Assembly (NCBI RefSeq): GCF_055900595.2
Contig: NZ_CM148325.1
DNA: 64,000 bases
Reading direction: 5' to 3' (one strand)
The position numbers and the translations under genes were made by a program. The notes under the pieces were generated by a model. The model was not told where the DNA came from, did not search any database, and saw only the letters and a program-made list of their open reading frames with translations. Positions 14,538 through 47,306 of the stretch are shown here, piece after piece. Position 1 is the stretch's first letter, and each line of letters starts with the position of its first letter.

Positions 14538-14542
14538 GCTTT

Positions 14543-14571
14543 CACCAGATGGCATATTCAGCCATCTGGTG
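14543..14571. terminator. Perfect 11-bp palindrome between convergent lplT and the DUF4139-like gene
   Basis: caccagatggc-atattca-gccatctggtg, 5 nt after the lplT stop and 5 nt before the opposite-strand stop; no clear U-tract on either side. Confidence 0.4.
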
Positions 14572-14575
14572 AAGA

Positions 14576-16231
14576 TCACATTCCCGAAGGGTGCATACCT
14601 TTCGGATACTTCACGCTGTATGAGAATGGCAGACTCACGTTCTCTTTGCCTGACAGTTTCAGCGTCCAGGACAGTTCACCCGTTTTCGCATCAAACTGTG
14701 CCTGGCCATATTGCATTTTTTCCACCGTAATATCACTGTTAGCACTGACTGGGATCTGGTCGAGTAGAGTGATATCCACCGCTTCGCCGTAGCTGTTCTT
14801 TACATTGAGGGTGTAACTGAAGTTGCGTACCGCGCTGTCGTTAAAGATAGATAACGCATTCTCTTTTTTGAGTACGGCTTTACGCTGAATAATCAGCTTA
14901 GGATCGCGGTTAAGCTGAATATCCAGCGACTTACCATCTTCTGGCGGCTGCAAATAGCCCACGCCGGTACGGTTGTTACCAAAGAAGATCTGACTTTCGC
15001 CGGGGATTAAATTTAACTGTTCCCACTCTTTAATTTGCACCTGGAGATACGCGTCATTACTGATCTTCGGAATAGCAAAGAAGCGATATTTACCGCTGAC
15101 CGACTCTTCCTTAATGACCACCGTGCGCGCGGTATTATCGCTGTCGATTTGCCACGGCAGCGAAAGCGCATAGCGGACATTTTGCGCAGTGAAACTTTCT
15201 GGTCGAGCCGAAGCTGGCACTGCCTGTTCGGCATACTTGCGCCCGGCTTGTCGCTCCCTTGTTTTTTGCATCTCTGCCTTCAGGGTTTTCTGCAATTCTG
15301 AGGCATCCTGGTTAGACGAATATTCCGAACGCTGTTCCATCACGGGTGATGCTGAAAGCGAGCCGCTTACACCACCATACTCCGGAACATCCACATACAG
15401 GGTTTCCAGGTGTGGCAACGTAAGATGAGTATCAGGTTCACTGGTCGAGAGCACGAGATTAACGCCTTTCCAGGGCAACCCCGTATACTGGCGAATATTA
15501 GCCTTGTAAACCAGACGCAGCGGCTGGTTTATGGCAGTGGCGTGAATATCATAGATCGGCGTCCAGGTAGCATCAGGGGTCATATAACGTACCACCGCTT
15601 TCGCTGTGACGGCTTTTGGGGCATAGACCTTAGCGATAATAACCTGCGGATCATTGGCTGCCACCGAATCGCCGTTACTCATGCTCTCGCGTTGCTCCAG
15701 CTTTTCAATTTCAAGCTGCTTATCAGCAAGTTTCTGCGTCAACTCATTGTCGACTTGTAATAACTCACCATTTTTCTCTTTCACCATTTGCAGATACTTG
15801 CCAACTTCGGCGGCACTTTTATTGGTTAATGTGCTATTTGCCTCTAATACCTTAATTTGAGCCGCGATATTGTTTTTCTCGGCGGTCAGTTTTGCCTGTT
15901 CCACCTTTGCTGCTTTTAACTGTTGCTGAATATCTGACGGCAGCGCATTCGGCTGTGTTTCCATTAGCGCGATACGTGAGGAAAGCACCGTCACTCCGTT
16001 ATCGATAGAAATGGCGATGCTGTCGTCGGTTACTGAATTGGCGATATTAGTAAAGATAATTTCGCTTTCACCTGCCGGTAAGTGGAGTATCTCTTCACCT
16101 TGCAGGCTGGCACCATGCAGATAAACAGTGACGTCTTTAAGTGTTAGCGGTTGGGTTACCTGCGCCCCCCAAGCGGAGGACAGGCACCCGGTAAGCAACA
16201 TGGCGAGGGGAATAGGTTTGAAAATCAACAT
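14576..16231 (-). CDS. DUF4139/DUF4140-like (MuiA-like) lipoprotein with central coiled coil
   Basis: 551 aa from ATG at 16231 (MLIFKPIPLAMLLTGC..., aagga RBS 5 nt upstream; the track ORF starts 5 codons earlier at TTG). Lipobox LLTGC; central K/E/Q-rich heptad-like region; Y/T/N-rich C-terminal part. I do not recall a gene at this position in K-12. Confidence 0.75.
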   Translation of the reverse strand: MLIFKPIPLAMLLTGCLSSAWGAQVTQPLTLKDVTVYLHGASLQGEEILHLPAGESEIIFTNIANSVTDDSIAISIDNGVTVLSSRIALMETQPNALPSDIQQQLKAAKVEQAKLTAEKNNIAAQIKVLEANSTLTNKSAAEVGKYLQMVKEKNGELLQVDNELTQKLADKQLEIEKLEQRESMSNGDSVAANDPQVIIAKVYAPKAVTAKAVVRYMTPDATWTPIYDIHATAINQPLRLVYKANIRQYTGLPWKGVNLVLSTSEPDTHLTLPHLETLYVDVPEYGGVSGSLSASPVMEQRSEYSSNQDASELQKTLKAEMQKTRERQAGRKYAEQAVPASARPESFTAQNVRYALSLPWQIDSDNTARTVVIKEESVSGKYRFFAIPKISNDAYLQVQIKEWEQLNLIPGESQIFFGNNRTGVGYLQPPEDGKSLDIQLNRDPKLIIQRKAVLKKENALSIFNDSAVRNFSYTLNVKNSYGEAVDITLLDQIPVSANSDITVEKMQYGQAQFDAKTGELSWTLKLSGKENVSLPFSYSVKYPKGMHPSGM

Positions 16232-16339
16232 GGTTATCCTTAACAATGGGCACAGACATTGAAACGCGCGCTGGCGTTGACCAAAAGAGTCTATTGCGCT
16301 TTGTCAGGAAAGATGCGGAGAAAAGTAGTGAATATATTC

Positions 16340-16382
16340 TGAAAAGTGGAGAAAAGAGACGCCTGGTGCAAAACACCAGGCG
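16340..16382 (-). terminator. Rho-independent terminator after tas
   Basis: Stem cgcctggtg/caccaggcg with caaaa loop, 6 nt downstream of the tas stop, followed on the minus strand by a T-rich tract. Confidence 0.6.
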
Positions 16383-16388
16383 AAAGGA

Positions 16389-17429
16389 TCACGGTGCCGG
16401 ATAAGTATAAACCTGATGTACCGCTTCAATTTCAGCTAATACGTCTTCGCTTAACTCCAGATGCAAACTTTCGACGTTAGTTTTCAGCTGCTCCATCGTG
16501 GTTGCGCCCAGCAGAGTGCTGGCAACAAACGGTTGACGGCGTACAAAAGCGAGCGCCATCTGAGCAGGATCCAGGCCATGACGTCTGGCGATATCGACAT
16601 ACGCCGCGACGGCTTTTTGCGTTTGCTCACCGCTATAGCGAGTGAAGCGGCTAAAGAGCGTATTACGTGCGCCAGCAGGTTTTGCACCGTTGAGGTATTT
16701 CCCGGTCAGCGTGCCGAAACCCAGACACGAATAGGCCAGCAGCTCGACCCCTTCATACTGGCTGACTTCTGCCAGACCCACTTCAAAACTGCGGTTTAAC
16801 AGACTGTAGGGGTTCTGAATGGTGACAATACGCGGCAGATCGTGTTTGTCCGCCAGATGCAGGTAGCGCATTACGCCAAATGCAGTTTCGTTCGACACGC
16901 CGATATAACGAATTTTTCCCGCGCGTTGGTACTCTGCCAGTGCGTCCAGCGTATCCAGCAGCGAAACCGCAGGGGCAGAATCTGTCCAGCTATAACCGAG
17001 TTTGCCGAAGCAGTTGGTTGGGCGCTGCGGCCAGTGCACCTGATAAAGATCGAGGTAATCAGTCTGCAGGCGCTTGAGGCTGTCATGCAGAGCTTCGCGG
17101 ATATTCTTCCGATCCAGCGCCTGATCCGGGCGGATGCCCTTGTCATTATTGCGCGACGGTCCGCTCACTTTGGAAGCGATAATTAACTTTTCGCGGCTGC
17201 CATGTTTTGCCAGCCAGTTACCGACGTAGGTTTCGGTTAACCCTTGCGTTTCGGGGCGCGGCGGCACTGGGTACATTTCGGCAACGTCGATAAGGTTAAT
17301 GCCCTGAGCGACGGCATAGTCGAGTTGTGCGTGGGCGTCGGCTTCGCTGTTCTGTTCACCAAACGTCATCGTGCCAAGCCCCAGCGTGCTGACTTCCAGC
17401 GAACTGTGGGGTATACGGTGATATTGCAT
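16389..17429 (-). CDS. tas: NADP(H)-dependent aldo-keto reductase Tas
   Basis: 346 aa; aldo-keto reductase family sequence (MQYHRIPHSSLEVSTLGLGTMTFG...). Confidence 0.92.
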   Translation of the reverse strand: MQYHRIPHSSLEVSTLGLGTMTFGEQNSEADAHAQLDYAVAQGINLIDVAEMYPVPPRPETQGLTETYVGNWLAKHGSREKLIIASKVSGPSRNNDKGIRPDQALDRKNIREALHDSLKRLQTDYLDLYQVHWPQRPTNCFGKLGYSWTDSAPAVSLLDTLDALAEYQRAGKIRYIGVSNETAFGVMRYLHLADKHDLPRIVTIQNPYSLLNRSFEVGLAEVSQYEGVELLAYSCLGFGTLTGKYLNGAKPAGARNTLFSRFTRYSGEQTQKAVAAYVDIARRHGLDPAQMALAFVRRQPFVASTLLGATTMEQLKTNVESLHLELSEDVLAEIEAVHQVYTYPAP

Positions 17430-20591: not shown

Positions 20592-22838
20592 ATGCTCACT
20601 CGCCTGCGCGAAATAGTCGAAAAGGTAGCCAGCGCACCACGCCTGAATGAGGCGTTAAATATTCTGGTTACCGACATCTGTCTTGCGATGGATACCGAGG
20701 TCTGTTCGGTCTACCTGGCCGATCATGACCGACGTTGTTACTACCTGATGGCGACCCGGGGGCTGAAAAAACCACGCGGTCGCACTGTAACGCTTGCGTT
20801 TGATGAAGGGATCGTCGGCCTGGTTGGCAGGCTGGCGGAACCGATAAACCTTGCAGATGCGCAAAAGCACCCCAGCTTCAAATACATCCCCTCCGTAAAA
20901 GAAGAACGTTTCCGCGCGTTTTTAGGCGTACCAATTATTCAACGTCGCCAGTTGCTTGGTGTACTGGTGGTACAGCAACGAGAGTTGCGCCAGTATGACG
21001 AAAGTGAAGAATCCTTCCTGGTGACGCTTGCCACCCAGATGGCAGCGATTCTTTCTCAGTCGCAGTTGACTGCCTTGTTTGGGCAATATCGCCAGACGCG
21101 AATCCGTGCATTACCGGCAGCGCCCGGTGTAGCAATTGCCGAAGGCTGGCAGGATGCCACGTTACCTTTAATGGAACAGGTGTATCAGGCATCAACGCTG
21201 GATCCGGCTCTGGAACGCGAACGACTGACCGGGGCGCTGGAAGAAGCGGCAAACGAGTTTCGCCGCTACAGCAAACGCTTTGCCGCCGGTGCACAAAAAG
21301 AAACGGCGGCTATTTTCGATCTTTACTCGCACCTGCTTTCGGACACCCGGCTGCGTCGCGAATTGTTTGCCGAGGTTGATAAAGGCTCGGTGGCAGAGTG
21401 GGCGGTAAAAACGGTCATTGAAAAATTTGCCGAACAGTTTGCCGCGCTAAGCGATAACTATCTCAAAGAGCGGGCTGGCGATTTACGTGCGCTGGGTCAG
21501 CGATTGCTGTTTCATCTTGATGACGCTAATCAAGGGCCGAACGCCTGGCCGGAACGTTTCATTCTGGTGGCAGATGAACTGTCAGCGACAACGCTTGCTG
21601 AGCTGCCCCAGGATCGCTTAGTCGGTGTTGTCGTGCGAGATGGCGCAGCCAACTCCCATGCTGCGATCATGGTACGTGCGCTGGGGATTCCTACCGTAAT
21701 GGGCGCGGATATTCAGCCTTCTGTGCTGCATCGTCGGACGTTGATCGTCGATGGTTATCGCGGTGAATTGCTGGTCGATCCGGAGCCGGTACTGCTGCAA
21801 GAATATCAGCGGCTAATTAGTGAAGAGATTGAGCTTAGCCGTCTGGCGGAAGATGACGTCAATTTACCCGCCCAGTTAAAAAGCGGCGAGCGCATTAAAG
21901 TCATGCTCAATGCCGGTTTAAGCCCGGAACATGAACAAAAACTGGGCAGCCGTATTGATGGCATAGGACTTTATCGCACTGAAATCCCATTCATGTTGCA
22001 AAGTGGTTTTCCGTCGGAAGAAGAACAGGTGGCGCAGTATCAGGGGATGCTGCAAATGTTCAATGATAAACCCGTCACCTTGCGTACGCTGGATGTCGGA
22101 GCAGATAAGCAGCTGCCTTACATGCCGATCAGCGAAGAGAATCCATGCCTGGGTTGGCGTGGGATTCGCATTACGCTCGATCAGCCGGAGATCTTCTTGA
22201 TTCAGGTGCGGGCGATGCTGCGTGCTAATGCCGCTACGGGCAACCTGAATATTCTGTTGCCGATGGTCACCAGCCTCGATGAAGTTGACGAAGCACGCCG
22301 CCTGATTGAACGTGCCGGACGTGAAGTCGAGGAGATGATCGGTTACGAAATTCCCAAACCACGTATCGGCATCATGCTTGAAGTGCCGTCAATGGTATTT
22401 ATGCTGCCGCATCTGGCAAAGCGGGTCGATTTTATCTCTGTTGGCACCAACGATCTGACTCAATACATCCTGGCCGTTGATCGCAACAATACCCGGGTGG
22501 CGAACATTTATGACAGTCTTCATCCTGCAATGTTACGAGCTCTGGCGATGATCGCTCGGGAAGCGGAAATACATGGCATCGATCTCCGTTTGTGCGGTGA
22601 AATGGCAGGCGATCCCATGTGCGTGGCAATCCTCATTGGGCTTGGCTATCGCCATCTGTCTATGAACGGACGGTCTGTTGCGCGCGTAAAATACCTGCTG
22701 CGGCGCATTGATTTTGCCGAAGCAGAAAACCTTGCGCAGCGCAGTCTGGAAGCGCAACTGGCGACCGAAGTTCGCCATCAGGTTGCGGCCTTTATGGAGC
22801 GTCGCGGCATGGGCGGGTTGATTCGCGGAGGGTTATAG
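20592..22838 (+). CDS. ptsP: PEP-protein phosphotransferase EI-Ntr (GAF domain-containing)
   Basis: 748 aa; N-terminal GAF domain and C-terminal PEP-utilizing Enzyme I domain. Confidence 0.94.
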   Translation: MLTRLREIVEKVASAPRLNEALNILVTDICLAMDTEVCSVYLADHDRRCYYLMATRGLKKPRGRTVTLAFDEGIVGLVGRLAEPINLADAQKHPSFKYIPSVKEERFRAFLGVPIIQRRQLLGVLVVQQRELRQYDESEESFLVTLATQMAAILSQSQLTALFGQYRQTRIRALPAAPGVAIAEGWQDATLPLMEQVYQASTLDPALERERLTGALEEAANEFRRYSKRFAAGAQKETAAIFDLYSHLLSDTRLRRELFAEVDKGSVAEWAVKTVIEKFAEQFAALSDNYLKERAGDLRALGQRLLFHLDDANQGPNAWPERFILVADELSATTLAELPQDRLVGVVVRDGAANSHAAIMVRALGIPTVMGADIQPSVLHRRTLIVDGYRGELLVDPEPVLLQEYQRLISEEIELSRLAEDDVNLPAQLKSGERIKVMLNAGLSPEHEQKLGSRIDGIGLYRTEIPFMLQSGFPSEEEQVAQYQGMLQMFNDKPVTLRTLDVGADKQLPYMPISEENPCLGWRGIRITLDQPEIFLIQVRAMLRANAATGNLNILLPMVTSLDEVDEARRLIERAGREVEEMIGYEIPKPRIGIMLEVPSMVFMLPHLAKRVDFISVGTNDLTQYILAVDRNNTRVANIYDSLHPAMLRALAMIAREAEIHGIDLRLCGEMAGDPMCVAILIGLGYRHLSMNGRSVARVKYLLRRIDFAEAENLAQRSLEAQLATEVRHQVAAFMERRGMGGLIRGGL

Positions 22839-40191: not shown

Positions 40192-41445
40192 ATGTCGGGA
40201 TCCAACACAGCAATCAGCCGTCGTCGTTTACTGCAAGGCGCGGGTGCCATGTGGCTATTGAGCGTAAGTCAGGTCAGTCTGGCTGCGGTCAGCCAGGTCG
40301 TGGCGGTGCGCGTCTGGCCTGCGTCCAGCTACACCCGTGTGACGGTAGAATCTAATCGTCAGCTGAAATATAAGCAGTTCGCGTTGAGTAACCCTGAACG
40401 CGTGGTGGTGGATATCGAAGATGTAAACCTGAACTCAGTGCTCAAGGGGATGGCGGCACAAATTCGTGCTGATGACCCGTTCATCAAGTCGGCGCGCGTC
40501 GGGCAGTTTGACCCGCAAACCGTGCGGATGGTTTTTGAGTTAAAGCAAAACGTAAAACCGCAGCTGTTTGCCCTTGCTCCGGTCGCCGGGTTTAAAGAGC
40601 GTCTGGTGATGGATCTCTATCCTGCCAATGCTCAGGACATGCAGGACCCGCTGCTGGCGCTGCTGGAGGATTACAATAAAGGCGATCTCGAAAAGCAGGT
40701 GCCGCCTGCGCAGAGTGGCCCGCAGCCAGGCAAAGCAGGGCGCGATCGTCCGATTGTCATTATGCTTGACCCTGGCCATGGCGGCGAAGACTCCGGTGCG
40801 GTGGGGAAATACAAAACGCGTGAAAAAGATGTGGTATTGCAAATTGCCCGCCGTTTGCGCTCTCTGATTGAGAAAGAGGGCAATATGAAAGTTTACATGA
40901 CCCGTAATGAAGACATCTTCATTCCGTTGCAAGTGCGCGTAGCAAAAGCACAGAAACAGCGTGCTGACTTGTTTGTCTCTATTCATGCCGATGCCTTTAC
41001 CAGTCGCCAGCCGAGCGGTTCCTCTGTGTTTGCGCTCTCTACCAAAGGTGCAACCAGTACCGCGGCAAAATATCTGGCGCAAACTCAGAACGCCTCGGAC
41101 TTGATTGGTGGCGTGAGTAAGAGCGGCGACCGTTATGTCGACCATACTATGTTCGATATGGTGCAGTCGCTGACCATTGCCGACAGTCTGAAGTTTGGTA
41201 AAGCTGTGTTGAATAAGCTCGGTAAAATCAACAAGCTGCATAAAAATCAGGTTGAACAAGCCGGGTTTGCCGTGCTGAAAGCGCCTGATATACCCTCCAT
41301 TTTGGTCGAAACGGCGTTTATCAGTAACGTTGAGGAAGAACGTAAACTGAAAACGGCAACCTTCCAGCAGGAAGTTGCGGAATCAATCCTCGCAGGGATA
41401 AAAGCGTATTTTGCCGATGGGGCGACGCTGGCGAGAAGGGGATAA
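40192..41445 (+). CDS. amiC: N-acetylmuramoyl-L-alanine amidase AmiC
   Basis: 417 aa from ATG at 40192 ([23 protein letters not shown]... Tat-type RR signal); gggaga RBS; Amidase_3 catalytic domain. Confidence 0.94.
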
Positions 41446-41613
41446 TGTTTTTATTTATTCAATGAATTTATATTTCGTTGAATAGATAATATTTACCTGA
41501 ATATTAGACGTTGGTTTTGTGACTGATGTCGAATATTTGAATGTCGGCTTGAAAAATAAGCCGACCATCTCTTTAATTAAGCACAATTCCGTGTAATGTA
41601 TATGCATTAGTTA

Positions 41614-41647
41614 ATCATCTTGTAACTGTTAAATCAGGCAAGGCAAT
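41614..41647 (+). promoter_or_regulatory. RAT (ribonucleic antiterminator) element in the operon leader
   Basis: tcatcTTGTaACTGtTAAAtCAGGCAAggCa resembles the SacY/LicT/BglG RAT consensus GGATTGTTACTGATAAAGCAGGCAAAACC; its 3' part overlaps the left arm of the following terminator. Confidence 0.6.
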
Positions 41648-41691
41648 GTTTGAAGTAATTATTACTTCTGACGTGCCTTGCCTTTTTTTTT
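41638..41691 (+). terminator. Leader rho-independent terminator overlapping the RAT
   Basis: Outer stem ggcaaggca/tgccttgcc (41638-41646 and 41674-41682) with an inner stem gaagtaat/attacttc, followed by T9 (41683-41691). Confidence 0.7.
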
Positions 41692-41702
41692 GGAGCTATG
41701 GA

Positions 41703-42527
41703 ATGATCATCGAAAAAGTCATGAACAATAATTGTGTACAGGCATCGATGAATGGACAGGAGGTTATCATTTCTGGGCCTGGCGTCGGTTACAACAAAAA
41801 ATATGGAATGTCGGTCCCTGAGCATCCGGCTAACCGGATTTTTTATGTCAGAAATGAACAAAAAAATAAACTCTACAAATTGATTGAACATGTGGATATT
41901 GAGTATGTTTTTGTTGCCGAAAAAATAGTGCAATATGCGGAGAACAATCTCGAAAAAAATCTCAATCCATCGCTACTATTGATTCTTGCTGATCATATTT
42001 CGAATGCAATATCCCGAGTCGCTTCAGGCATACAAATTAATAATGTTTTCCTTGATGAAATCAAAGCGTTGTACAAAGCAGAGTATGCGATAAGTCGCGA
42101 TGCATTAACTATCATTAATGAGCAATTCAGCGTTCAACTTCCTGATGATGAGATTGGTTTTATAGCATTGCATATTTTAAATAATTATGAAAATTCAGTT
42201 GATTATGAATCAGTACGGATTATTGAGTTGTCGCAAATAATCACGGGGCTTATTGAAGTTGTTTATAACAGAAAGGTGGACAGAAGTTCATTTAATTATT
42301 CCAGGTTCATGATACACCTTAAATATTTTTCAAGTCGCGTATTATGCAATGAAAAAATAAAACAGAAAGATATTGGTGATCTCTATGAACAGTTTCTTGA
42401 GAAAGACATTCTGTTACAGCGCGCAATTCATGAAATTGAAAGGTATTTGTACGCCACTTTTAAATATGAATTGATTTTGGAAGAAAAACTATATCTCTCT
42501 ATTCGCACCAAAGTATTAATGGACTGA
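41703..42527 (+). CDS. BglG/LicT/SacY-family transcriptional antiterminator (CAT domain plus two PRDs)
   Basis: 274 aa from ATG at 41703 (MIIEKVMNNNCVQASMNGQEVIISGPGVGYNKK = CAT RNA-binding domain); conserved His in PRD-like segments (IGFIALHILNN, RFMIHLKYFSS); ggag RBS 7 nt upstream. The track start at 41646 lies inside the terminator hairpin. Confidence 0.8.
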   Translation: MIIEKVMNNNCVQASMNGQEVIISGPGVGYNKKYGMSVPEHPANRIFYVRNEQKNKLYKLIEHVDIEYVFVAEKIVQYAENNLEKNLNPSLLLILADHISNAISRVASGIQINNVFLDEIKALYKAEYAISRDALTIINEQFSVQLPDDEIGFIALHILNNYENSVDYESVRIIELSQIITGLIEVVYNRKVDRSSFNYSRFMIHLKYFSSRVLCNEKIKQKDIGDLYEQFLEKDILLQRAIHEIERYLYATFKYELILEEKLYLSIRTKVLMD

Positions 42528-42558
42528 TTATATATAACATTTATATGAGATAACCCGC

Positions 42559-44139
42559 ATGAAACAAAAGAAAGCCTGGAGTTTTTTTCAGAGCCTGGGA
42601 AAGGCATTTATGTATCCCATCGCTCTGCTAAGTGTATGTGGCATGATGTTAGGGCTAGGAAGTGGTTTAGCCAGCGATGATATGGCAAAATTAATTCCAC
42701 TACTGGCTATTCCCGTAATTAAAACCATTCTTGATTTTATTGTTAGCCTTGGTTTGTTTGCCTTTGTCAATTTACCTGTATTGTTTGCGATAGCTATACC
42801 TCTGGGGTTATTAAAAGAGAAAGAGGATAAAGCCTATGGCGCTTTTTCTGGCTTAATTGGTTTCATGGCGATGCATCTGGGAACGAACTTTTATCTTAAA
42901 CAACATGACTTATTGGTCGCTGCTGATCAAATGTCGACACATGGGCAAACCATTATTCTGGGAATCCAGTCCTACAATACCAGTGTGTTGGGTGGGATTA
43001 TAGCAGGATTATTAGTCGCCAGTATGTATAAAAAGATCGTTAACTTACGTATTCCTGAATCATTAGGATTTTATAGTGGCCCACGCCTGGTGCCTATTAT
43101 TACACTGATTGTGATGAGCGGATTTGGTCTGATCATCCCTTTTATCTGGCCGCCATTTTTCAATCTTTTCATGCTCATTGGCCACTGGATTTCAACTTCC
43201 GGTCCTGTTGGCTATTTTTTCTATGCAGTCGCCGAACGCGTGACGATACCTTTTGGTTTAAATCACCTGGTGACGTCAGTTTTCCGCTTTACCCCCATCG
43301 GCGGATCGGCAGTGATCGGCGGAGAAGAGTATTATGGCACCCTGAACATGTTTATGGCGTACGTCAAAGAGAATGCGGTCATTCCGCTGGATTTGGCGGG
43401 GAAAATGGAACAGGGCAAACTGATGATTCAGTATGGTCTGGCTGGTGCCGCGCTGGCGATGTATCGCACTGCTCATGCTCAAAACAGAAAAGCTATCAAA
43501 GCATTGCTTATTTCCGGGGTGCTTACAGTCATTATTGGCGGCGTCAGCGAACCGATTGAGTTTCTGTTCTTATTTGTCAGTCCACTGCTATTTGTCTTCC
43601 ATGCTTTTATGAATGGATTCGCCAACATGGTCTTGCCATATATGGGCGTGAAGATGGGATTTACTGGCGATCTGATTCAATTTATTAGCTTTGGCGTATT
43701 GCGTGGCACAAGAACAGGTTGGCCAATAGCGGTGTGTGTCGAAGTGGCCTATTTCTTTATTTATTACTTTGTGTTCCGTTGGACTATTCTCAAATTTAAC
43801 CTGATGACGGTAGGCCGTGAAGAGTCCAGTCCTGTCACGCTGAACGCTCATGAGGATACGGCTATAGCGGATATCCCACCGCTTGATAAATCAGAGCTGC
43901 AAGCAGCGGAGCAGATGGTTAAGGCACTTGGTGGTAAAGAGAATATTAAATCCCTGGATAATTGCGTAACTCGTTTACGTTTAACAATCGCAGATATGGG
44001 ATTGATTGACGAGGCAGCAATAAAAAGAGCTGGCGGAATTGCGGTTGTTAAACTTGATCAAAATACCCTACAAGTCATTATCGGTACTAAAGTCATCGCC
44101 TTGCGTCGGGATATGGATAACTACATGGGGATATGCTGA
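42559..44139 (+). CDS. PTS glucose-family EIICB permease (no EIIA domain)
   Basis: 526 aa; about 10 TM segments (EIIC) then a C-terminal EIIB domain with phosphorylatable Cys in NCVTRLRLTIADMGL...AVVKLDQNTLQVIIGTK. Confidence 0.85.
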   Translation: MKQKKAWSFFQSLGKAFMYPIALLSVCGMMLGLGSGLASDDMAKLIPLLAIPVIKTILDFIVSLGLFAFVNLPVLFAIAIPLGLLKEKEDKAYGAFSGLIGFMAMHLGTNFYLKQHDLLVAADQMSTHGQTIILGIQSYNTSVLGGIIAGLLVASMYKKIVNLRIPESLGFYSGPRLVPIITLIVMSGFGLIIPFIWPPFFNLFMLIGHWISTSGPVGYFFYAVAERVTIPFGLNHLVTSVFRFTPIGGSAVIGGEEYYGTLNMFMAYVKENAVIPLDLAGKMEQGKLMIQYGLAGAALAMYRTAHAQNRKAIKALLISGVLTVIIGGVSEPIEFLFLFVSPLLFVFHAFMNGFANMVLPYMGVKMGFTGDLIQFISFGVLRGTRTGWPIAVCVEVAYFFIYYFVFRWTILKFNLMTVGREESSPVTLNAHEDTAIADIPPLDKSELQAAEQMVKALGGKENIKSLDNCVTRLRLTIADMGLIDEAAIKRAGGIAVVKLDQNTLQVIIGTKVIALRRDMDNYMGIC

Positions 44140-45314
44140 TGGATGTTTTTAATACTCCTATTTCCCGCAAAGGAACATATTGTACCCAATGGGACTTTTG
44201 CGAGGACAGATTTGGTGTAAAAGATGTATTACCATTCTCTATTTCAGATATGGATCTTCCGATACCGGAAGCTATCATCAGGGCATTAAAAAAACGTCTG
44301 GAACACCCGATTTTAGGGTACAGCCGTTGGCAGCATGATGACTATCTGAATGCGATAGTCAATTGGTATCATCAACAATATAAAACTGAAATCAAACCAG
44401 AATGGATCACCTATAGCCCAAGCGTGATGTACTCCATTGCTAAAGCAATAGAGTTATTGACATCGCATGGTGATAATATTCTCGTTTTTACACCTGTCTA
44501 TAATGCATTTTTTGATATAATTAAACATAGTGAGAGAAATATTCTGACAGCCTCTTTGATTATAAAAAATGAGGGGGGCTACGCTATCAATTGGCAAGAT
44601 TTTGATCTTAAGATTCAAAGCGCAAAGATGGTGTTATTATGTAATCCTCATAACCCGACAGGAACCGTCTGGTCGGAAGAAGATCTGCATAAAATCGCTG
44701 CAAGCTGTGCAAGACATAATGTCTGGTTATGTTCAGATGAAATTCACAGTGATTTTGTTTTTAATCGTAGCTTTACATCTGCGCTTAAAATAAAAAAAGA
44801 AAAAGTAGTGGTGTTTAATTCGATATCGAAGACATTTAATGTTCCCGCGCTAACAGGATCGTATATGATTTCAACTGACGATAATTTTAATCATAAGTTC
44901 AGAACGATATCAAGATATCGCGATTTTGTAAACTCCCCATCCGTACTGAATATAATTGCAACTATTATTGCCTATAACGAATGTGAGGGATGGTTAAAGT
45001 CATTAAAGGCACATATTGCCTCTAACATTCAATTCACCCAGCAGTATCTGAACGAAAATACTCCAGAATTGATCGTAAGGCCAGCTGATGGTTGCTATTT
45101 TTCGTGGATAGATTGCTCTGCTATTGGTTATCCATTTGATGAATTCTACAGTCGATTAATTCATGAAGGCAAAGTGGGCATTATGGCGGGGAATGTCTAT
45201 GGAACGGAGGGGGAGGGCTACCTTCGTCTGAACCTGGCCTGCGGTCGAGAAAAATTATATATGGGGCTTACGCGTCTTGCGAGTGTAATTAAAAATATTA
45301 ATCAAGGAAAATAA
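44133..45314 (+). CDS. PLP-dependent aminotransferase class I/II, MalY/PatB-like C-S lyase
   Basis: 393 aa; NPHNPTG motif and Schiff-base Lys in NSISKTFN; start overlaps the PTS gene stop (ATGCTGATGGA). Confidence 0.8.
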   Translation: MLMDVFNTPISRKGTYCTQWDFCEDRFGVKDVLPFSISDMDLPIPEAIIRALKKRLEHPILGYSRWQHDDYLNAIVNWYHQQYKTEIKPEWITYSPSVMYSIAKAIELLTSHGDNILVFTPVYNAFFDIIKHSERNILTASLIIKNEGGYAINWQDFDLKIQSAKMVLLCNPHNPTGTVWSEEDLHKIAASCARHNVWLCSDEIHSDFVFNRSFTSALKIKKEKVVVFNSISKTFNVPALTGSYMISTDDNFNHKFRTISRYRDFVNSPSVLNIIATIIAYNECEGWLKSLKAHIASNIQFTQQYLNENTPELIVRPADGCYFSWIDCSAIGYPFDEFYSRLIHEGKVGIMAGNVYGTEGEGYLRLNLACGREKLYMGLTRLASVIKNINQGK

Positions 45315-45316
45315 AA

Positions 45317-45913
45317 ATGAACAGCACGGATCTTATCCATCTCATTAAACATTTTATGCGTAACGAACATAAAGCAGTTGAAGAAGTTATTGATTCCCCC
45401 CTTTCGGAGGTTGCAAATTTAATTAAAGTATTACAGTCTTGTCAGGGGAAAGTTGTTTTTATTGGTGTCGGTAAGTCCGGTATTATTGCCCGAAAACTCG
45501 CCGCAACATTTGCCAGCACTGGAACTCCCTCGTTTTTTGTTCACGGTACTGAAGCCGTACACGGCGATCTTGGGATGGTGGCGAAAGATGATGTTGTTAT
45601 TCTTATTTCAAACAGTGGTGAGACGACAGAAATCCTGGCAACACTACCTAGTCTGAAAAAAATGGGTAATTATTTGATCTCCTTTACCCGCAGTCATCGC
45701 TCATCGCTTGCGATAAGTTGTGATTTATCCGTTGAAATTCCCGTAAAAAGTGAGGCGGATAATTTAGGTTTAGCGCCGTCATGCTCATCAACAGTCGTTC
45801 TGGTTGTTGGTGATGCGGTGGCGCTTGCGCTCTCCGAATTGAAAAAGTTTACTCGTGCTGATTTCGGCTTATATCATCCAGGAGGTGCGCTCGGTATTAA
45901 AGCAAACTCATAA
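45317..45913 (+). CDS. SIS-domain sugar-phosphate isomerase (KdsD/GutQ-like catalytic domain without CBS domains)
   Basis: 198 aa; VVFIGVGKSGIIARKLAATFASTGTPSFFVHGTEAVHGDLGMV...ISNSGET...HPGGALG closely resembles the SIS core of arabinose-5-phosphate isomerases; no C-terminal CBS pair. Confidence 0.8.
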   Translation: MNSTDLIHLIKHFMRNEHKAVEEVIDSPLSEVANLIKVLQSCQGKVVFIGVGKSGIIARKLAATFASTGTPSFFVHGTEAVHGDLGMVAKDDVVILISNSGETTEILATLPSLKKMGNYLISFTRSHRSSLAISCDLSVEIPVKSEADNLGLAPSCSSTVVLVVGDAVALALSELKKFTRADFGLYHPGGALGIKANS

Positions 45914-45983
45914 TTTTAGAATATAAAACAGTAACCGGTCACGCCATCTTTTGGGGTGGCGTTCATTGATGTGAGTGTCAGCT

Positions 45984-46931
45984 ATGAAAAACGTTCTGGT
46001 CACCGTTCCCAGCTTTTCAGCGCGTTGTGTTTCTGCCAGCAAGCTGCTAAGAGAAAATCATTTTAACCTTATTATCAAGAATAATGTGGAGCATCTGGTT
46101 AAATCAGAATCCACAGTATTACGAGAATCTATTTGCGCAGTCATTGCCGGAAAAGATTGTTATCAAGCGGATACGTTATCGCGACTACCAGGAGTGAAAA
46201 TAATATCGAGATTCGGGACAGGGATTGATAATATTGATCTTCATACGGCTCGACAATCAGGTATTGTGGTCAATAATGCTGTTGGGATTAATTCAAATGC
46301 AGTCGCGGAATTTATCATTGGTCTTATTTTTGCGAGCATGAGAAATATCCCCGGTAGCTATCATGCGATGCAAAATGGTTATTGGGGCGAGTCGCATGGC
46401 TGCGAGTTACAAGGTAAACGTATTGGCCTGCTTGGCTACGGCAATATTGGCAAAACACTGGCGAAAAGGTTATCTGGTTTTGATGTTGAGCTTTTAGCTT
46501 TTGACAAACAACCCGATTTCCAGGCCGCAGGCAAAGATGGAGTTCAGTTCGTATCAATTGAAGATATCTTTATGCAGTCTCATGTCATCATCGTTCTTTT
46601 GCCATTTTCTCCTGAGCTGGAGAACTTCATTAGTCATAAATATTTGTCGATGATGCGCAATGGTGCTCTTATCATCAACGCCGCAAGGGGAAAGTTGCTG
46701 GATGAGGGGGCTTTACTTCAGGTAATTGAAGAACGAAATGTTTTTGCAGCACTGGATGTGTTTAGCTCTGAACCGCTAGCGCAATTTAGCCCATTGCTAC
46801 ATGCCAGGAATATCATTACAACGCCGCATATTGCGGCCGCCACCGTTGAGTCATACCAGCAAACCGGGATATACGTTGCCAGGTCGATAATAGATTTCTT
46901 TGCAGGAAGGGAGATAAAAAACGTGCTGTGA
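45984..46931 (+). CDS. D-isomer-specific 2-hydroxyacid dehydrogenase family, NAD(P)-binding
   Basis: 315 aa from ATG at 45984 (MKNVLVTVPSF...; the track ORF starts 3 codons earlier at GTG); GLLGYGNIGKTLAKRL nucleotide-binding motif; catalytic-region motifs NAARGKLLDE and TPHIAAAT. Confidence 0.8.
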   Translation: MKNVLVTVPSFSARCVSASKLLRENHFNLIIKNNVEHLVKSESTVLRESICAVIAGKDCYQADTLSRLPGVKIISRFGTGIDNIDLHTARQSGIVVNNAVGINSNAVAEFIIGLIFASMRNIPGSYHAMQNGYWGESHGCELQGKRIGLLGYGNIGKTLAKRLSGFDVELLAFDKQPDFQAAGKDGVQFVSIEDIFMQSHVIIVLLPFSPELENFISHKYLSMMRNGALIINAARGKLLDEGALLQVIEERNVFAALDVFSSEPLAQFSPLLHARNIITTPHIAAATVESYQQTGIYVARSIIDFFAGREIKNVL

Positions 46932-46957
46932 GTTCAGCTAAGGAAGATTTCAGGTAC

Positions 46958-46991
46958 AAAAAAACCGCAATCTGTGAAACACATTGCGGTT
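46958..46991 (-). terminator. Terminator of the tRNA-fMet operon (bidirectional hairpin)
   Basis: Stem aaccgcaat/attgcggtt with 11-nt loop; on the minus strand it is followed by a U7 tract (the A-run 46958-46964), 19 nt downstream of the tRNA 3' end. Confidence 0.65.
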
Positions 46992-47009
46992 TATCAGCAT
47001 CATAAGTGT

Positions 47010-47086
<77 letters not shown>

Positions 47087-47119
47087 TCACCGTACTGCTT
47101 TACTTCATCAAATTTTGAT

Positions 47120-47196
<77 letters not shown>

Positions 47197-47229
47197 TCAC
47201 CGTACTGCTTTACTTCATCAAATTTTAAT

Positions 47230-47306
<77 letters not shown>

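Follow-up and report, generated by a model that had tools for sequence, protein, structure and literature searches.

A five-gene islet lies between amiC and the metV tRNA genes

We analysed a stretch of 64,000 nucleotides (contig NZ_CM148325.1 of RefSeq assembly GCF_055900595.2; hereafter the window), in which an acquired islet is located between amiC and three tRNA-Met genes (Table 1). Compared to K-12, 74 bp of the amiC-metV spacer are replaced by the islet, whose GC content is 40.2% versus 51.4% for the rest of the window. Its five genes encode an antiterminator, a phosphotransferase system (PTS) permease, a MalY/PatB-family lyase, a SIS-domain isomerase and a 2-hydroxyacid dehydrogenase. 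The block spans positions 41703-46931 with internal gaps of 31, 0 (an overlap), 2 and ~70 bp, and is flanked by spacers of 257 bp upstream and 78 bp downstream.

Table 1. Positions of the islet, its genes and its predicted regulatory features in the window.
Feature	Position	Strand	Description or basis
Acquired islet, 5,565 bp	41444..47008	+	BLAST against K-12, breakpoints 41443/47009
RAT-like antiterminator target	41620..41640	+	TTGTAACTGTTAAATCAGGCA; 3' end overlaps 5' arm of terminator
Predicted intrinsic terminator	41636..41692	+	Hairpin 41636-41683 followed by U9; 10 nt 5' of antiterminator start codon
BglG/LicT-family transcription antiterminator	41703..42527	+	274 aa; Pfam CAT_RBD + PRD
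PTS permease EIICB	42559..44139	+	526 aa; glucose family, MalX-like, without EIIA domain
Cys469 codon	43963..43965	+	Predicted EIIB phosphorylation site within LDNCVTRLRL
MalY/PatB-family PLP-dependent C-S lyase	44139..45314	+	391 aa; Pfam Aminotran_1_2
SIS-only (CBS-less) KpsF/GutQ-type sugar-phosphate isomerase	45317..45913	+	Pfam SIS
D-isomer-specific 2-hydroxyacid dehydrogenase (PGDH-like)	45984..46931	+	315 aa; Pfam 2-Hacid_dh, 2-Hacid_dh_C
Three tRNA-Met genes (metV/W/Z), right islet border	47010..47306	-	ARAGORN, Rfam, K-12 annotation

The islet was found in 1686 of the 5426 complete E. coli genomes (31%). In uropathogenic strain CFT073, the same five genes lie in the same order beside amiC (region 3249590-3254819, c3405-c3410), with 98% identity between the permeases and 97% identity between the SIS proteins. 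Genes c3405-c3410 have been placed in PAI-CFT073-metV and reported to be associated with UPEC, under the description 'PTS system, maltose/glucose specific' (PMC2831201). The islet occupies the amiC-proximal end of that pathogenicity island. In CFT073, a type VI secretion cluster separates it from the tRNA-Met genes, whereas in the window it directly adjoins them. Nucleotide alleles have also diverged, with ~94% identity to the allele of CUVET21-H2, where the layout is flanked by the type VI secretion cluster as in CFT073. The islet is the c3405-c3410 cluster of PAI-CFT073-metV and was horizontally acquired.

Among the accessory proteins, the lyase scored above the cutoff of the NCBIfam C_S_lyase_PatB model (366.9 versus 340 bits), and the KdsD and kpsF models match the SIS protein over their SIS half only. 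The SIS protein is the orthologue of CFT073 c3406, an arabinose-5-phosphate isomerase (API), for which API activity has reportedly been shown.

Four diverged E. coli alleles of the islet each retain the five genes intact, and dN/dS of the permease gene is 0.02-0.035 at a dS of 0.30-0.37. The permease is therefore under strong purifying selection in E. coli, which implies that something must phosphorylate it.

The permease is an EIIA-less EIICB of the PTS glucose family

Pfam searches of the permease returned two domains only, PTS_EIIC (residues 14-353, E = 4e-74) and PTS_EIIB (residues 452-484, E = 1.2e-14). Over its last 83 residues, the permease aligns with IIB-Glc of E. coli PtsG (PDB 1O2F chain B) as far as the end of that domain, and it stops 3 residues past this alignment, leaving no room for a fused EIIA. 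In the same alignment, the loop around Cys469 pairs with the active-site loop LDACITRLRV of PtsG IIB, and both Cys469 and the Cys-x-T-R-L-R loop are invariant among the aligned permease orthologues. The domain search and the 1O2F alignment thus confirmed the preliminary description of this protein as an EIIC plus an EIIB, with the cysteine in NCVTRLRL, and no EIIA.

The arrangement of a Glc/Mal-type EIIC followed by a C-terminal, Cys-type EIIB (PF00367) assigns the permease to the TC 4.A.1-type glucose family, and its matches in the PDB are PtsG EIICB and bcMalT. It aligns over its full length to PtsG structures 8QSR and 9HNP, and shares with PtsG the domain order, the Cys-type EIIB and the C-I/V-T-R-L-R loop. 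By contrast, identity to PtsG is only ~34% in EIIC and 42% in EIIB, and ptsG transcription is controlled otherwise. We conclude that the permease is an EIIA-less EIICB of the PTS glucose family and is ordinary for that family.

We rejected assignment of the permease as a MalX equivalog. It fell below the cutoffs of both NCBIfam malX-type IIBC models (536.5 versus 632.2 bits for TIGR02004; 526 versus 665 bits for NF007509) and is 42% identical to K-12 MalX, and so is MalX-like only. The gene linkage is of the MalX type, in that the lyase gene starts within the permease stop codon, and in K-12 the MalY/PatB lyase gene malY similarly comes straight after malX, which encodes an EIIA-less EIIC-EIIB permease. 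The two loci differ in sequence (36% identity between the lyases), in gene content (the islet adds the SIS isomerase and dehydrogenase genes) and in regulation, since malX-malY is controlled by the MalI repressor and the islet has a LicT-type antiterminator with a putative RAT and terminator. Pairing of an EIICB with a MalY/PatB lyase was found in K-12 and also in homologues from Enterococcus, Bacillus and Vibrio.

The leader contains a predicted RAT-terminator element

The antiterminator reading frame is open from 41646, and the domain match and RefSeq annotation begin at ATG 41703. The NCBIfam LicT model aligns to the protein over its full length at 227 bits, under its equivalog cutoff of 300, and both PRDs align to LicT (PDB 1TLV; also 1H99). 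Phosphorylated histidines H100, H159 and H207 of LicT are conserved, but the fourth (H269), which completes the set of four typical of BglG/LicT/SacY antiterminators, is an arginine. This position is also Arg in Atlantibacter, and it is His in Enterobacter and in the seven aligned Firmicute-type orthologues. Because the fourth regulatory histidine is Arg in E. coli, HPr-dependent control of the islet antiterminator may differ from that of LicT.

Upstream of this gene, a predicted RAT overlaps an intrinsic terminator, as in the leaders regulated by BglG, LicT and SacY. A single copy of the RAT-like pattern is present in the window, against an expectation of 0 from 100 shuffles, and the terminator RNA has a predicted folding energy of -29.8 kcal/mol (z = -3.96) that was matched by 0 of 200 shuffled sequences. 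Canonical RAT-terminator units with the same motif precede the C. difficile EIICB gene, and direct reading of the Clostridium sequence shows a close variant ahead of the EIICB gene there. Rfam matched only the three tRNAs and neither the RAT nor the terminator. Overall, the layout resembles the E. coli bgl operon and B. subtilis LicT in its CAT_RBD plus PRD antiterminator, its RAT overlapping a terminator 5' of the regulator gene and its PTS permease as a putative sensor. It differs in that BglF, a member of the beta-glucoside branch, includes an EIIA domain.

A CRP-like site at 41518-41533 (TGTGACTGATGTCGAA, 2 mismatches) was discarded as chance level (26 such sites in the window compared to 26.3 expected), and so we do not claim direct control by cAMP-CRP. 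A sigma-70 promoter scan of the islet was likewise at chance (15 found, 16.6 expected), and we assign no promoter.

Clostridial orthologues of the operon carry an EIIA gene that enterobacterial versions lack

The preliminary description also stated that no EIIA gene is present in the islet, and Pfam, tblastn and HMM searches agreed. The eight further islet ORFs of at least 60 aa gave no Pfam match at E ≤ 10 except for one at chance level (E = 0.17). For the wider scan, which covered every ORF of 30 aa or more in the window and in all orthologous loci, we used Crr and three clostridial EIIAs as tblastn queries and built an HMM from the same four sequences. Neither method detected an EIIA among the window's 1177 stop-to-stop ORFs (best E = 0.42 by tblastn and 0.79 by HMM), and the only other PTS gene in these 64 kb is ptsP (EI-Ntr, 20592-22838). 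Chance is not at issue here, as this is an observation of domain presence or absence.

Orthologous clusters, with 61-86% permease identity, were each checked for an adjacent PF00358 EIIA gene. Seven Firmicute-type loci were examined, of which six could be assessed for EIIA (five distinct, L003 and L004 being near-duplicates). An adjacent stand-alone PF00358 EIIA gene was found in C. difficile (L002), Clostridium (L003/L004), L009, L010, L011 and L012. At L007, also of Firmicute type, there is no EIIA gene in the 8 kb upstream, and the contig ends just past the SIS gene. By contrast, no adjacent PF00358 EIIA gene is present in any of the three enterobacterial versions (E. coli, Atlantibacter L005 and Enterobacter L006). 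In comparisons with Crr, two of the clostridial EIIAs showed 41-44% identity and retained both active-site histidines, and a more distant permease homologue (P0088) has a fused PF00358 domain. The contrast between a clostridial EIIA in cis and its enterobacterial absence is a modestly useful comparative result, in that it identifies the class of partner of this permease.

The C. difficile cluster CD3027-CD3031 illustrates the difference. The permeases are 68% identical, and both clusters have the order antiterminator-EIICB-lyase-SIS and a RAT/terminator control element. However, the fifth gene encodes a dedicated EIIA in C. difficile and the dehydrogenase in E. coli, and the C. difficile RAT-terminator is present in four tandem copies between the antiterminator and EIICB genes, compared with a single copy 5' of the antiterminator gene in E. 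coli. In earlier work, CD3027-CD3030 were treated as a putative glucose-maltose PTS that includes malY, and malY was reported to be essential in C. difficile (PMC6143707). The dehydrogenase gene is present in the Escherichia and Atlantibacter clusters, is fragmented in one Atlantibacter genome and is absent from the other nine orthologous loci (Enterobacter and Firmicutes).

Crr supplied in trans is the probable phosphoryl donor of the permease

Judged from sequence, the islet is probably an acquired, antiterminator-controlled operon for carbohydrate catabolism, whose EIIA-less glucose-family EIICB would be fed by host Crr (EIIA-Glc) in trans. We consider this reliance on Crr to be the best explanation of four sets of results. 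The islet EIIB is homologous to PtsG IIB, the domain that docks EIIA-Glc in 1O2F; the dedicated EIIAs of the clostridial clusters are of the Crr type; complete E. coli genomes almost always contain crr (5425 of 5426); and the permease gene is under purifying selection. These results support the initial proposal that EIIA acts in trans and that Crr is its most plausible source. We found no positive sign of an adaptation to Crr in the EIIB domain, which shows no consistent drift toward the PtsG and MalX EIIBs compared to the clostridial orthologues (identity to PtsG of 41.8 versus 35.4%; to MalX of 42.0 versus 46.9%, for E. coli and clostridial orthologues, respectively).

An EIIA-less EIICB that is served by Crr is standard for PtsG, TreB, AscF and probably MalX, and so is the family norm rather than an oddity. 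PtsG with Crr is the paradigm of a split glucose-family PTS, and Crr probably also acts as the EIIA for MalX (PMC6148471). In B. subtilis, the EIICB or EIIBC proteins MalP, NagP, TreP, SacP, SacX and MurP likewise lack EIIA and receive their phosphoryl groups in trans from glucose-family EIIA domains; SacX, in addition, has a PRD antiterminator under its control (PMC6148471). The donors there are PtsG, GamP and PtsA/YpqE rather than Crr, and lyase or SIS partners are not described (PMC6148471).

The donor could instead be another glucose-family EIIA, such as the NagE or BglF domain or a strain-specific EIIA_1 encoded on another island, which we regard as unlikely. Cross-talk of this kind is known, since the EIIA domains of NagE and BglF are able to replace Crr, BglF replaces EIIA-Glc for PtsG and ScrA, and glucose uptake was lost only in a crr man nagE triple mutant (PMC6148471). 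However, Crr is an abundant, constitutive and soluble EIIA_1 that nearly every E. coli genome encodes, and the locus has no neighbouring EIIA gene in E. coli, CFT073, Atlantibacter or Enterobacter. In addition, NagE and BglF are inducible or cryptic. The ability of these domains to stand in for Crr implies that a single crr mutant may be leaky.

Loss of the clostridial EIIA gene could alternatively have left the permease unphosphorylated in E. coli, either as a facilitator or sensor only or as part of a decaying operon, as the fragmented Atlantibacter dehydrogenase gene might suggest. This is very unlikely given the low dN/dS and the five intact ORFs of the diverged alleles, the invariant active-site loop and the retention of the islet in nearly a third of genomes. 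Moreover, deletion of c3405-c3410 reportedly attenuates CFT073 in mouse urinary tract infection. Finally, direct phosphorylation of EIIB by HPr, a formal possibility for any EIIA-less permease, is scarcely credible, because the Firmicutes orthologues retain a dedicated adjacent EIIA that would be pointless if HPr were enough. In B. subtilis, moreover, only glucose-family EIIA domains serve the EIIA-less transporters, and a strain deprived of every EIIA domain is unable to use the substrates that EIIA-less glucose-family transporters take up, which excludes direct transfer from HPr in that species (PMC6148471).

With Crr as the donor, the phosphoryl group would pass from PEP to EI, HPr, host EIIA-Glc and Cys469 of EIIB, and from there to the incoming substrate. 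In the absence of substrate, phosphorylated EIIB would phosphorylate the first PRD of the antiterminator and keep it inactive, and transcription would halt at the leader terminator. In the presence of substrate, EIIB would be drained of phosphate, and the antiterminator would bind the RAT and allow readthrough into the operon. The use of Crr, together with HPr acting on PRD2, would link the operon to the glucose and catabolite status of the host. The ancestral operon would be the Firmicutes form with its own glucose-type EIIA gene, and we propose that the enterobacterial forms lack this gene because the host already provides a compatible EIIA.

A possible two-gene catabolic module and its implications

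Our literature search found no known substrate for the EIICB-MalY-SIS cluster. A speculative idea, which we think improbable, is that the EIICB and the MalY/PatB PLP-dependent lyase form an ancient and widely conserved two-gene catabolic module for a single substrate. One candidate is a sugar joined to an amino acid, as in S- or O-glycosyl amino acids and similar conjugates. Import of the compound and phosphorylation of its sugar part would fall to the PTS, and the lyase would then free the sugar part through beta-elimination. The product would be fed into central metabolism by the CBS-less arabinose-5-phosphate isomerase of the islet variant, joined by the dehydrogenase in E. coli. For EIIA, the module would depend on a gene in cis in clostridia, whereas in enterobacteria Crr would act in trans. 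If this idea is right, the module would also explain the position of malY behind malX in K-12, the role of the cluster in kidney colonisation by UPEC and its strong induction in C. difficile biofilms.

The antiterminator-EIICB-lyase-isomerase core has been linked to urinary-tract fitness, and the islet has been known from UPEC since 2009-2011. An EIICB that borrows EIIA-Glc is the textbook enterobacterial arrangement, so that the present finding is correct but ordinary. It does make a clean prediction, namely that a crr-family mutant would lose transport by this permease and read through the leader terminator constitutively. The islet would also illustrate how an imported PTS operon is wired into the Crr-centred catabolite network of its host.

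Setting of the islet

The window is E. coli chromosome, whose shared core is ~97% identical to that of K-12. The gene order is ptsP-lgt-thyA-ppd-recC-ptrA-recB-recD-argA-amiC, followed by the islet and then metV/W/Z-mltA-tcdA-csdE-csdA-...-fuc. Alignment with K-12 placed the islet breakpoints at 41443 and 47009; these enclose a 5,565-bp segment, in place of which K-12 has 74 bp of amiC-metV spacer. GC content is 40.2% in the islet compared to 51.4% in the remainder of the window, and among 5426 complete E. coli genomes, 1686 carry this segment. Its five genes are co-oriented, with internal gaps of 31, 0, 2, and ~70 bp. As read by eye, an inverted repeat (CCGCAAT...ATTGCGG), with A7 on one flank and TTTAT on the other, separates the dehydrogenase stop codon from metV. 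It is probably the terminator of the minus-strand tRNA-Met operon, and the islet operon may terminate there as well. Elsewhere in the window, a 1.86-kb insertion relative to K-12 contains a single ORF encoding DUF4140 and DUF4139 domains.

Features of the islet and of a second insertion in the window
Feature	Coordinates	Strand	Length (aa)
RAT-like element	41620-41640
Leader hairpin	41636-41683
BglG/LicT-type antiterminator	41703-42527	+
EIICB permease	42559-44139	+	526
MalY/PatB C-S lyase	44139-45314	+
SIS-only KpsF/GutQ-type isomerase	45317-45913	+
D-2-hydroxyacid dehydrogenase	45984-46931	+
Inverted repeat	46965-46989
lplT-tas insertion	14538-16392
ORF of lplT-tas insertion	14576-16246	-	556

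Absence of EIIA from the permease and the islet

Pfam matches in the permease were confined to PTS_EIIC (residues 14-353; E 4e-74) and PTS_EIIB (452-484; E 1.2e-14), and the Cys of its NCVTRLRL motif is residue 469. The final 83 residues align with the PtsG IIB-Glc domain of the EIIA-Glc complex (1O2F_B), with LDNCVTRLRL opposite LDACITRLRV of PtsG. Because the permease stops 3 residues beyond this alignment, no fused EIIA is possible. The permease is 42% identical to K-12 MalX, falling under both NCBIfam MalX cutoffs, and the islet lyase is 36% identical to K-12 MalY; by sequence, we class the permease as MalX-like, but not as MalX. Its EIIB domain showed no sequence shift toward the EIIB of PtsG or MalX.

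Pfam searches of the eight further islet ORFs of at least 60 aa gave only one chance-level match (E 0.17). Across the 64-kb window, all 1177 ORFs (30 aa or longer) were searched for EIIA by tblastn, using Crr plus three EIIAs from clostridia as queries, and with an HMM built from the same proteins. Neither search detected an EIIA (best E 0.42 and 0.79, respectively), and ptsP is the sole other PTS gene. The preliminary description of a permease with EIIC and a Cys-type EIIB but no EIIA, in an islet that encodes none, is thus upheld, and the absence extends across the window.

EIIA genes at orthologous loci

Homologues at least 61% identical to the permease occur in Atlantibacter, Enterobacter, C. 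difficile, Clostridium, and gut metagenomes, and all contain EIIC and EIIB only. The antiterminator-EIICB-lyase-SIS core is conserved in the homologue contigs, except in locus L012, which lacks the SIS gene, and L011, where the SIS gene is upstream on the opposite strand. At Firmicute-type loci, a separate gene for a PF00358 (glucose-type) EIIA adjoins the core: directly 3' of the SIS gene in C. difficile (L002), upstream and divergent in Clostridium sp. KNHs214 (L003/L004), L009, and L010, upstream with the SIS gene in L011, and immediately upstream on the same strand in L012. The L007 contig ends after the SIS gene and is not judgeable for EIIA. When every locus was scanned uniformly with an HMM, these genes were confirmed and no EIIA was found at the loci of E. 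coli, Atlantibacter, or Enterobacter. Two clostridial EIIAs (L002 and L003) are 41-44% identical to Crr, with the contexts of both catalytic His residues conserved. The C. difficile locus corresponds to the published CD3027-CD3031 operon, in which CD3027 and CD3030 have been described as a putative glucose-maltose PTS flanking malY-CD3029 (PMC6143707). The EIIA genes beside Firmicute-type orthologues imply that the partner class of the permease is glucose-type EIIA, and their absence from enterobacterial loci implies that a private copy has been dispensed with there.

In Atlantibacter hermannii, the islet occupies the amiC-mltA site used in E. coli, and its dehydrogenase gene is fragmented (L005 11436-12383). 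The Enterobacter version (L006) is at a different site, beside fruBKA, and the dehydrogenase is absent.

Leader and antiterminator

A strong leader hairpin (-29.8 kcal/mol, z = -3.96 by RNA folding) followed by U9 lies 10 nt upstream of the antiterminator ATG. Its 5' arm is overlapped by TTGTAACTGTTAAATCAGGCA, which occurs at a single position in the window against a chance expectation of zero and is similar to the canonical RAT (antiterminator target RNA) preceding the EIICB gene in clostridial orthologues. The antiterminator aligns to LicT across both PRD regulatory domains; of the four regulatory histidines, three are conserved and the fourth is replaced by Arg. This RAT-like/terminator leader and LicT-like regulator imply a PTS-sensed operon of the BglG/LicT type. 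E. coli has one RAT and terminator unit, upstream of the antiterminator gene, whereas C. difficile has four tandem canonical units (L002 1177-1560; period ~104 nt) between the antiterminator and EIICB genes.

At the position of LicT His269, in PRD2, the antiterminators of E. coli (motif LYLSIRT, window 42493-42513) and Atlantibacter have Arg, and those of Enterobacter and of the seven Firmicute-type loci in the alignment have His; thus, HPr-dependent activation may differ. No Rfam family matched the leader, and a promoter scan of the islet stayed at chance level. A CRP-like site at 41518 was rejected, as its frequency was at chance level.

The phosphoryl donor

The preliminary description had further proposed that EIIA acts in trans and is most plausibly Crr, the soluble EIIA-Glc of the host. 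The PF00358 EIIAs beside orthologues and the ubiquity of crr (5425 of 5426 E. coli genomes) support this proposal, and we consider it likely that Crr relays phosphate to the permease of an antiterminator-controlled operon. Phosphate would pass from PEP through EI, HPr, Crr, and Cys469 to the substrate. When substrate is absent, phospho-EIIB would transfer phosphate to the antiterminator at PRD1, with transcription stopping at 41692; when substrate is present, the antiterminator would lose its phosphate and bind the RAT, resulting in read-through. By draining Crr~P, uptake would link the operon to inducer exclusion and to control by cAMP, as with any Crr-dependent PTS.

We regard a different EIIA_1 protein as an unlikely donor. 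It is quite improbable that the permease is not phosphorylated or that the operon is decaying. Against decay, all five ORFs are intact in the four E. coli alleles compared (window, CUVET21-H2, 88_1577, and 005008), and the permease dN/dS of 0.02-0.035, at dS of 0.30-0.37, implies strong purifying selection, incompatible with a dead remnant. Direct transfer from HPr to EIIB is the least probable route of all; in B. subtilis, a glucose-family EIIA domain is required by EIIA-less transporters, which HPr does not serve directly (PMC6148471).

Relation to PAI-metV and allelic divergence

The islet is the c3405-c3410 gene set of the pathogenicity island PAI-CFT073-metV. Work by Mosberg et al. in 2011 reportedly assigned c3406 as an arabinose-5-phosphate isomerase without CBS domains, and is said to have left the carbohydrate imported by the c3406 operon as unknown. 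In CFT073, five genes of identical type adjoin amiC, with a type VI secretion (T6SS) cluster beyond them, and the permease and SIS protein are 98% and 97% identical, respectively, to those of the window. The islet-T6SS arrangement (VasL and others) in CUVET21-H2 (L016 6132-6201) and CFT073 (L023 22915-24291) corresponds to the larger PAI-metV. By contrast, the window islet directly abuts the tRNA-Met genes without a T6SS, which implies that the metabolic islet is a module separable from the T6SS. In PMC2831201, the c3405-c3410 genes appear under 'PTS system, maltose/glucose specific' and are enriched in UPEC, where the islet has already been described.

Divergence among the E. coli islet alleles is unusually high (per-gene dS of 0.14-0.49; nucleotide identity of 91-94% for window 41100-47008 against L016, L017, and L018). 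This divergence reaches the amiC 3' end (91-92% over 345 nt, with identical protein), compared to 94.8% for argA-amiC and ~97% for the window core against K-12. These sequence comparisons suggest that the alleles are old, or that the islet and its flanks were imported by recombination.

Pairing of permease and lyase

A MalX-like EIICB gene directly precedes one for a MalY/PatB-type PLP lyase in the islet (window 42559-45314), K-12 malXY (L013 1856-4630), Enterococcus casseliflavus (L020 5001-7754), Bacillus salipaludis (L021 5001-7833, among GH38/GH125/GH85 genes), and Vibrio scophthalmi (L022 5001-7708, near GH18, GH3, and M42 peptidase genes). The regulators at these loci vary (LicT-type, MalI, RpiR-type, and Mga/PRD-type), and no EIIA was found within 5 kb at the Enterococcus, Bacillus, and Vibrio loci. 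A literature search returned no reported substrate for the EIICB-MalY-SIS cluster. The recurrent adjacency suggests that the MalX-like permease and the MalY/PatB lyase act on a common substrate. The EIIA-less state is normal for enterobacterial glucose-family EIICB permeases, and the possible shared substrate is the more interesting lead.
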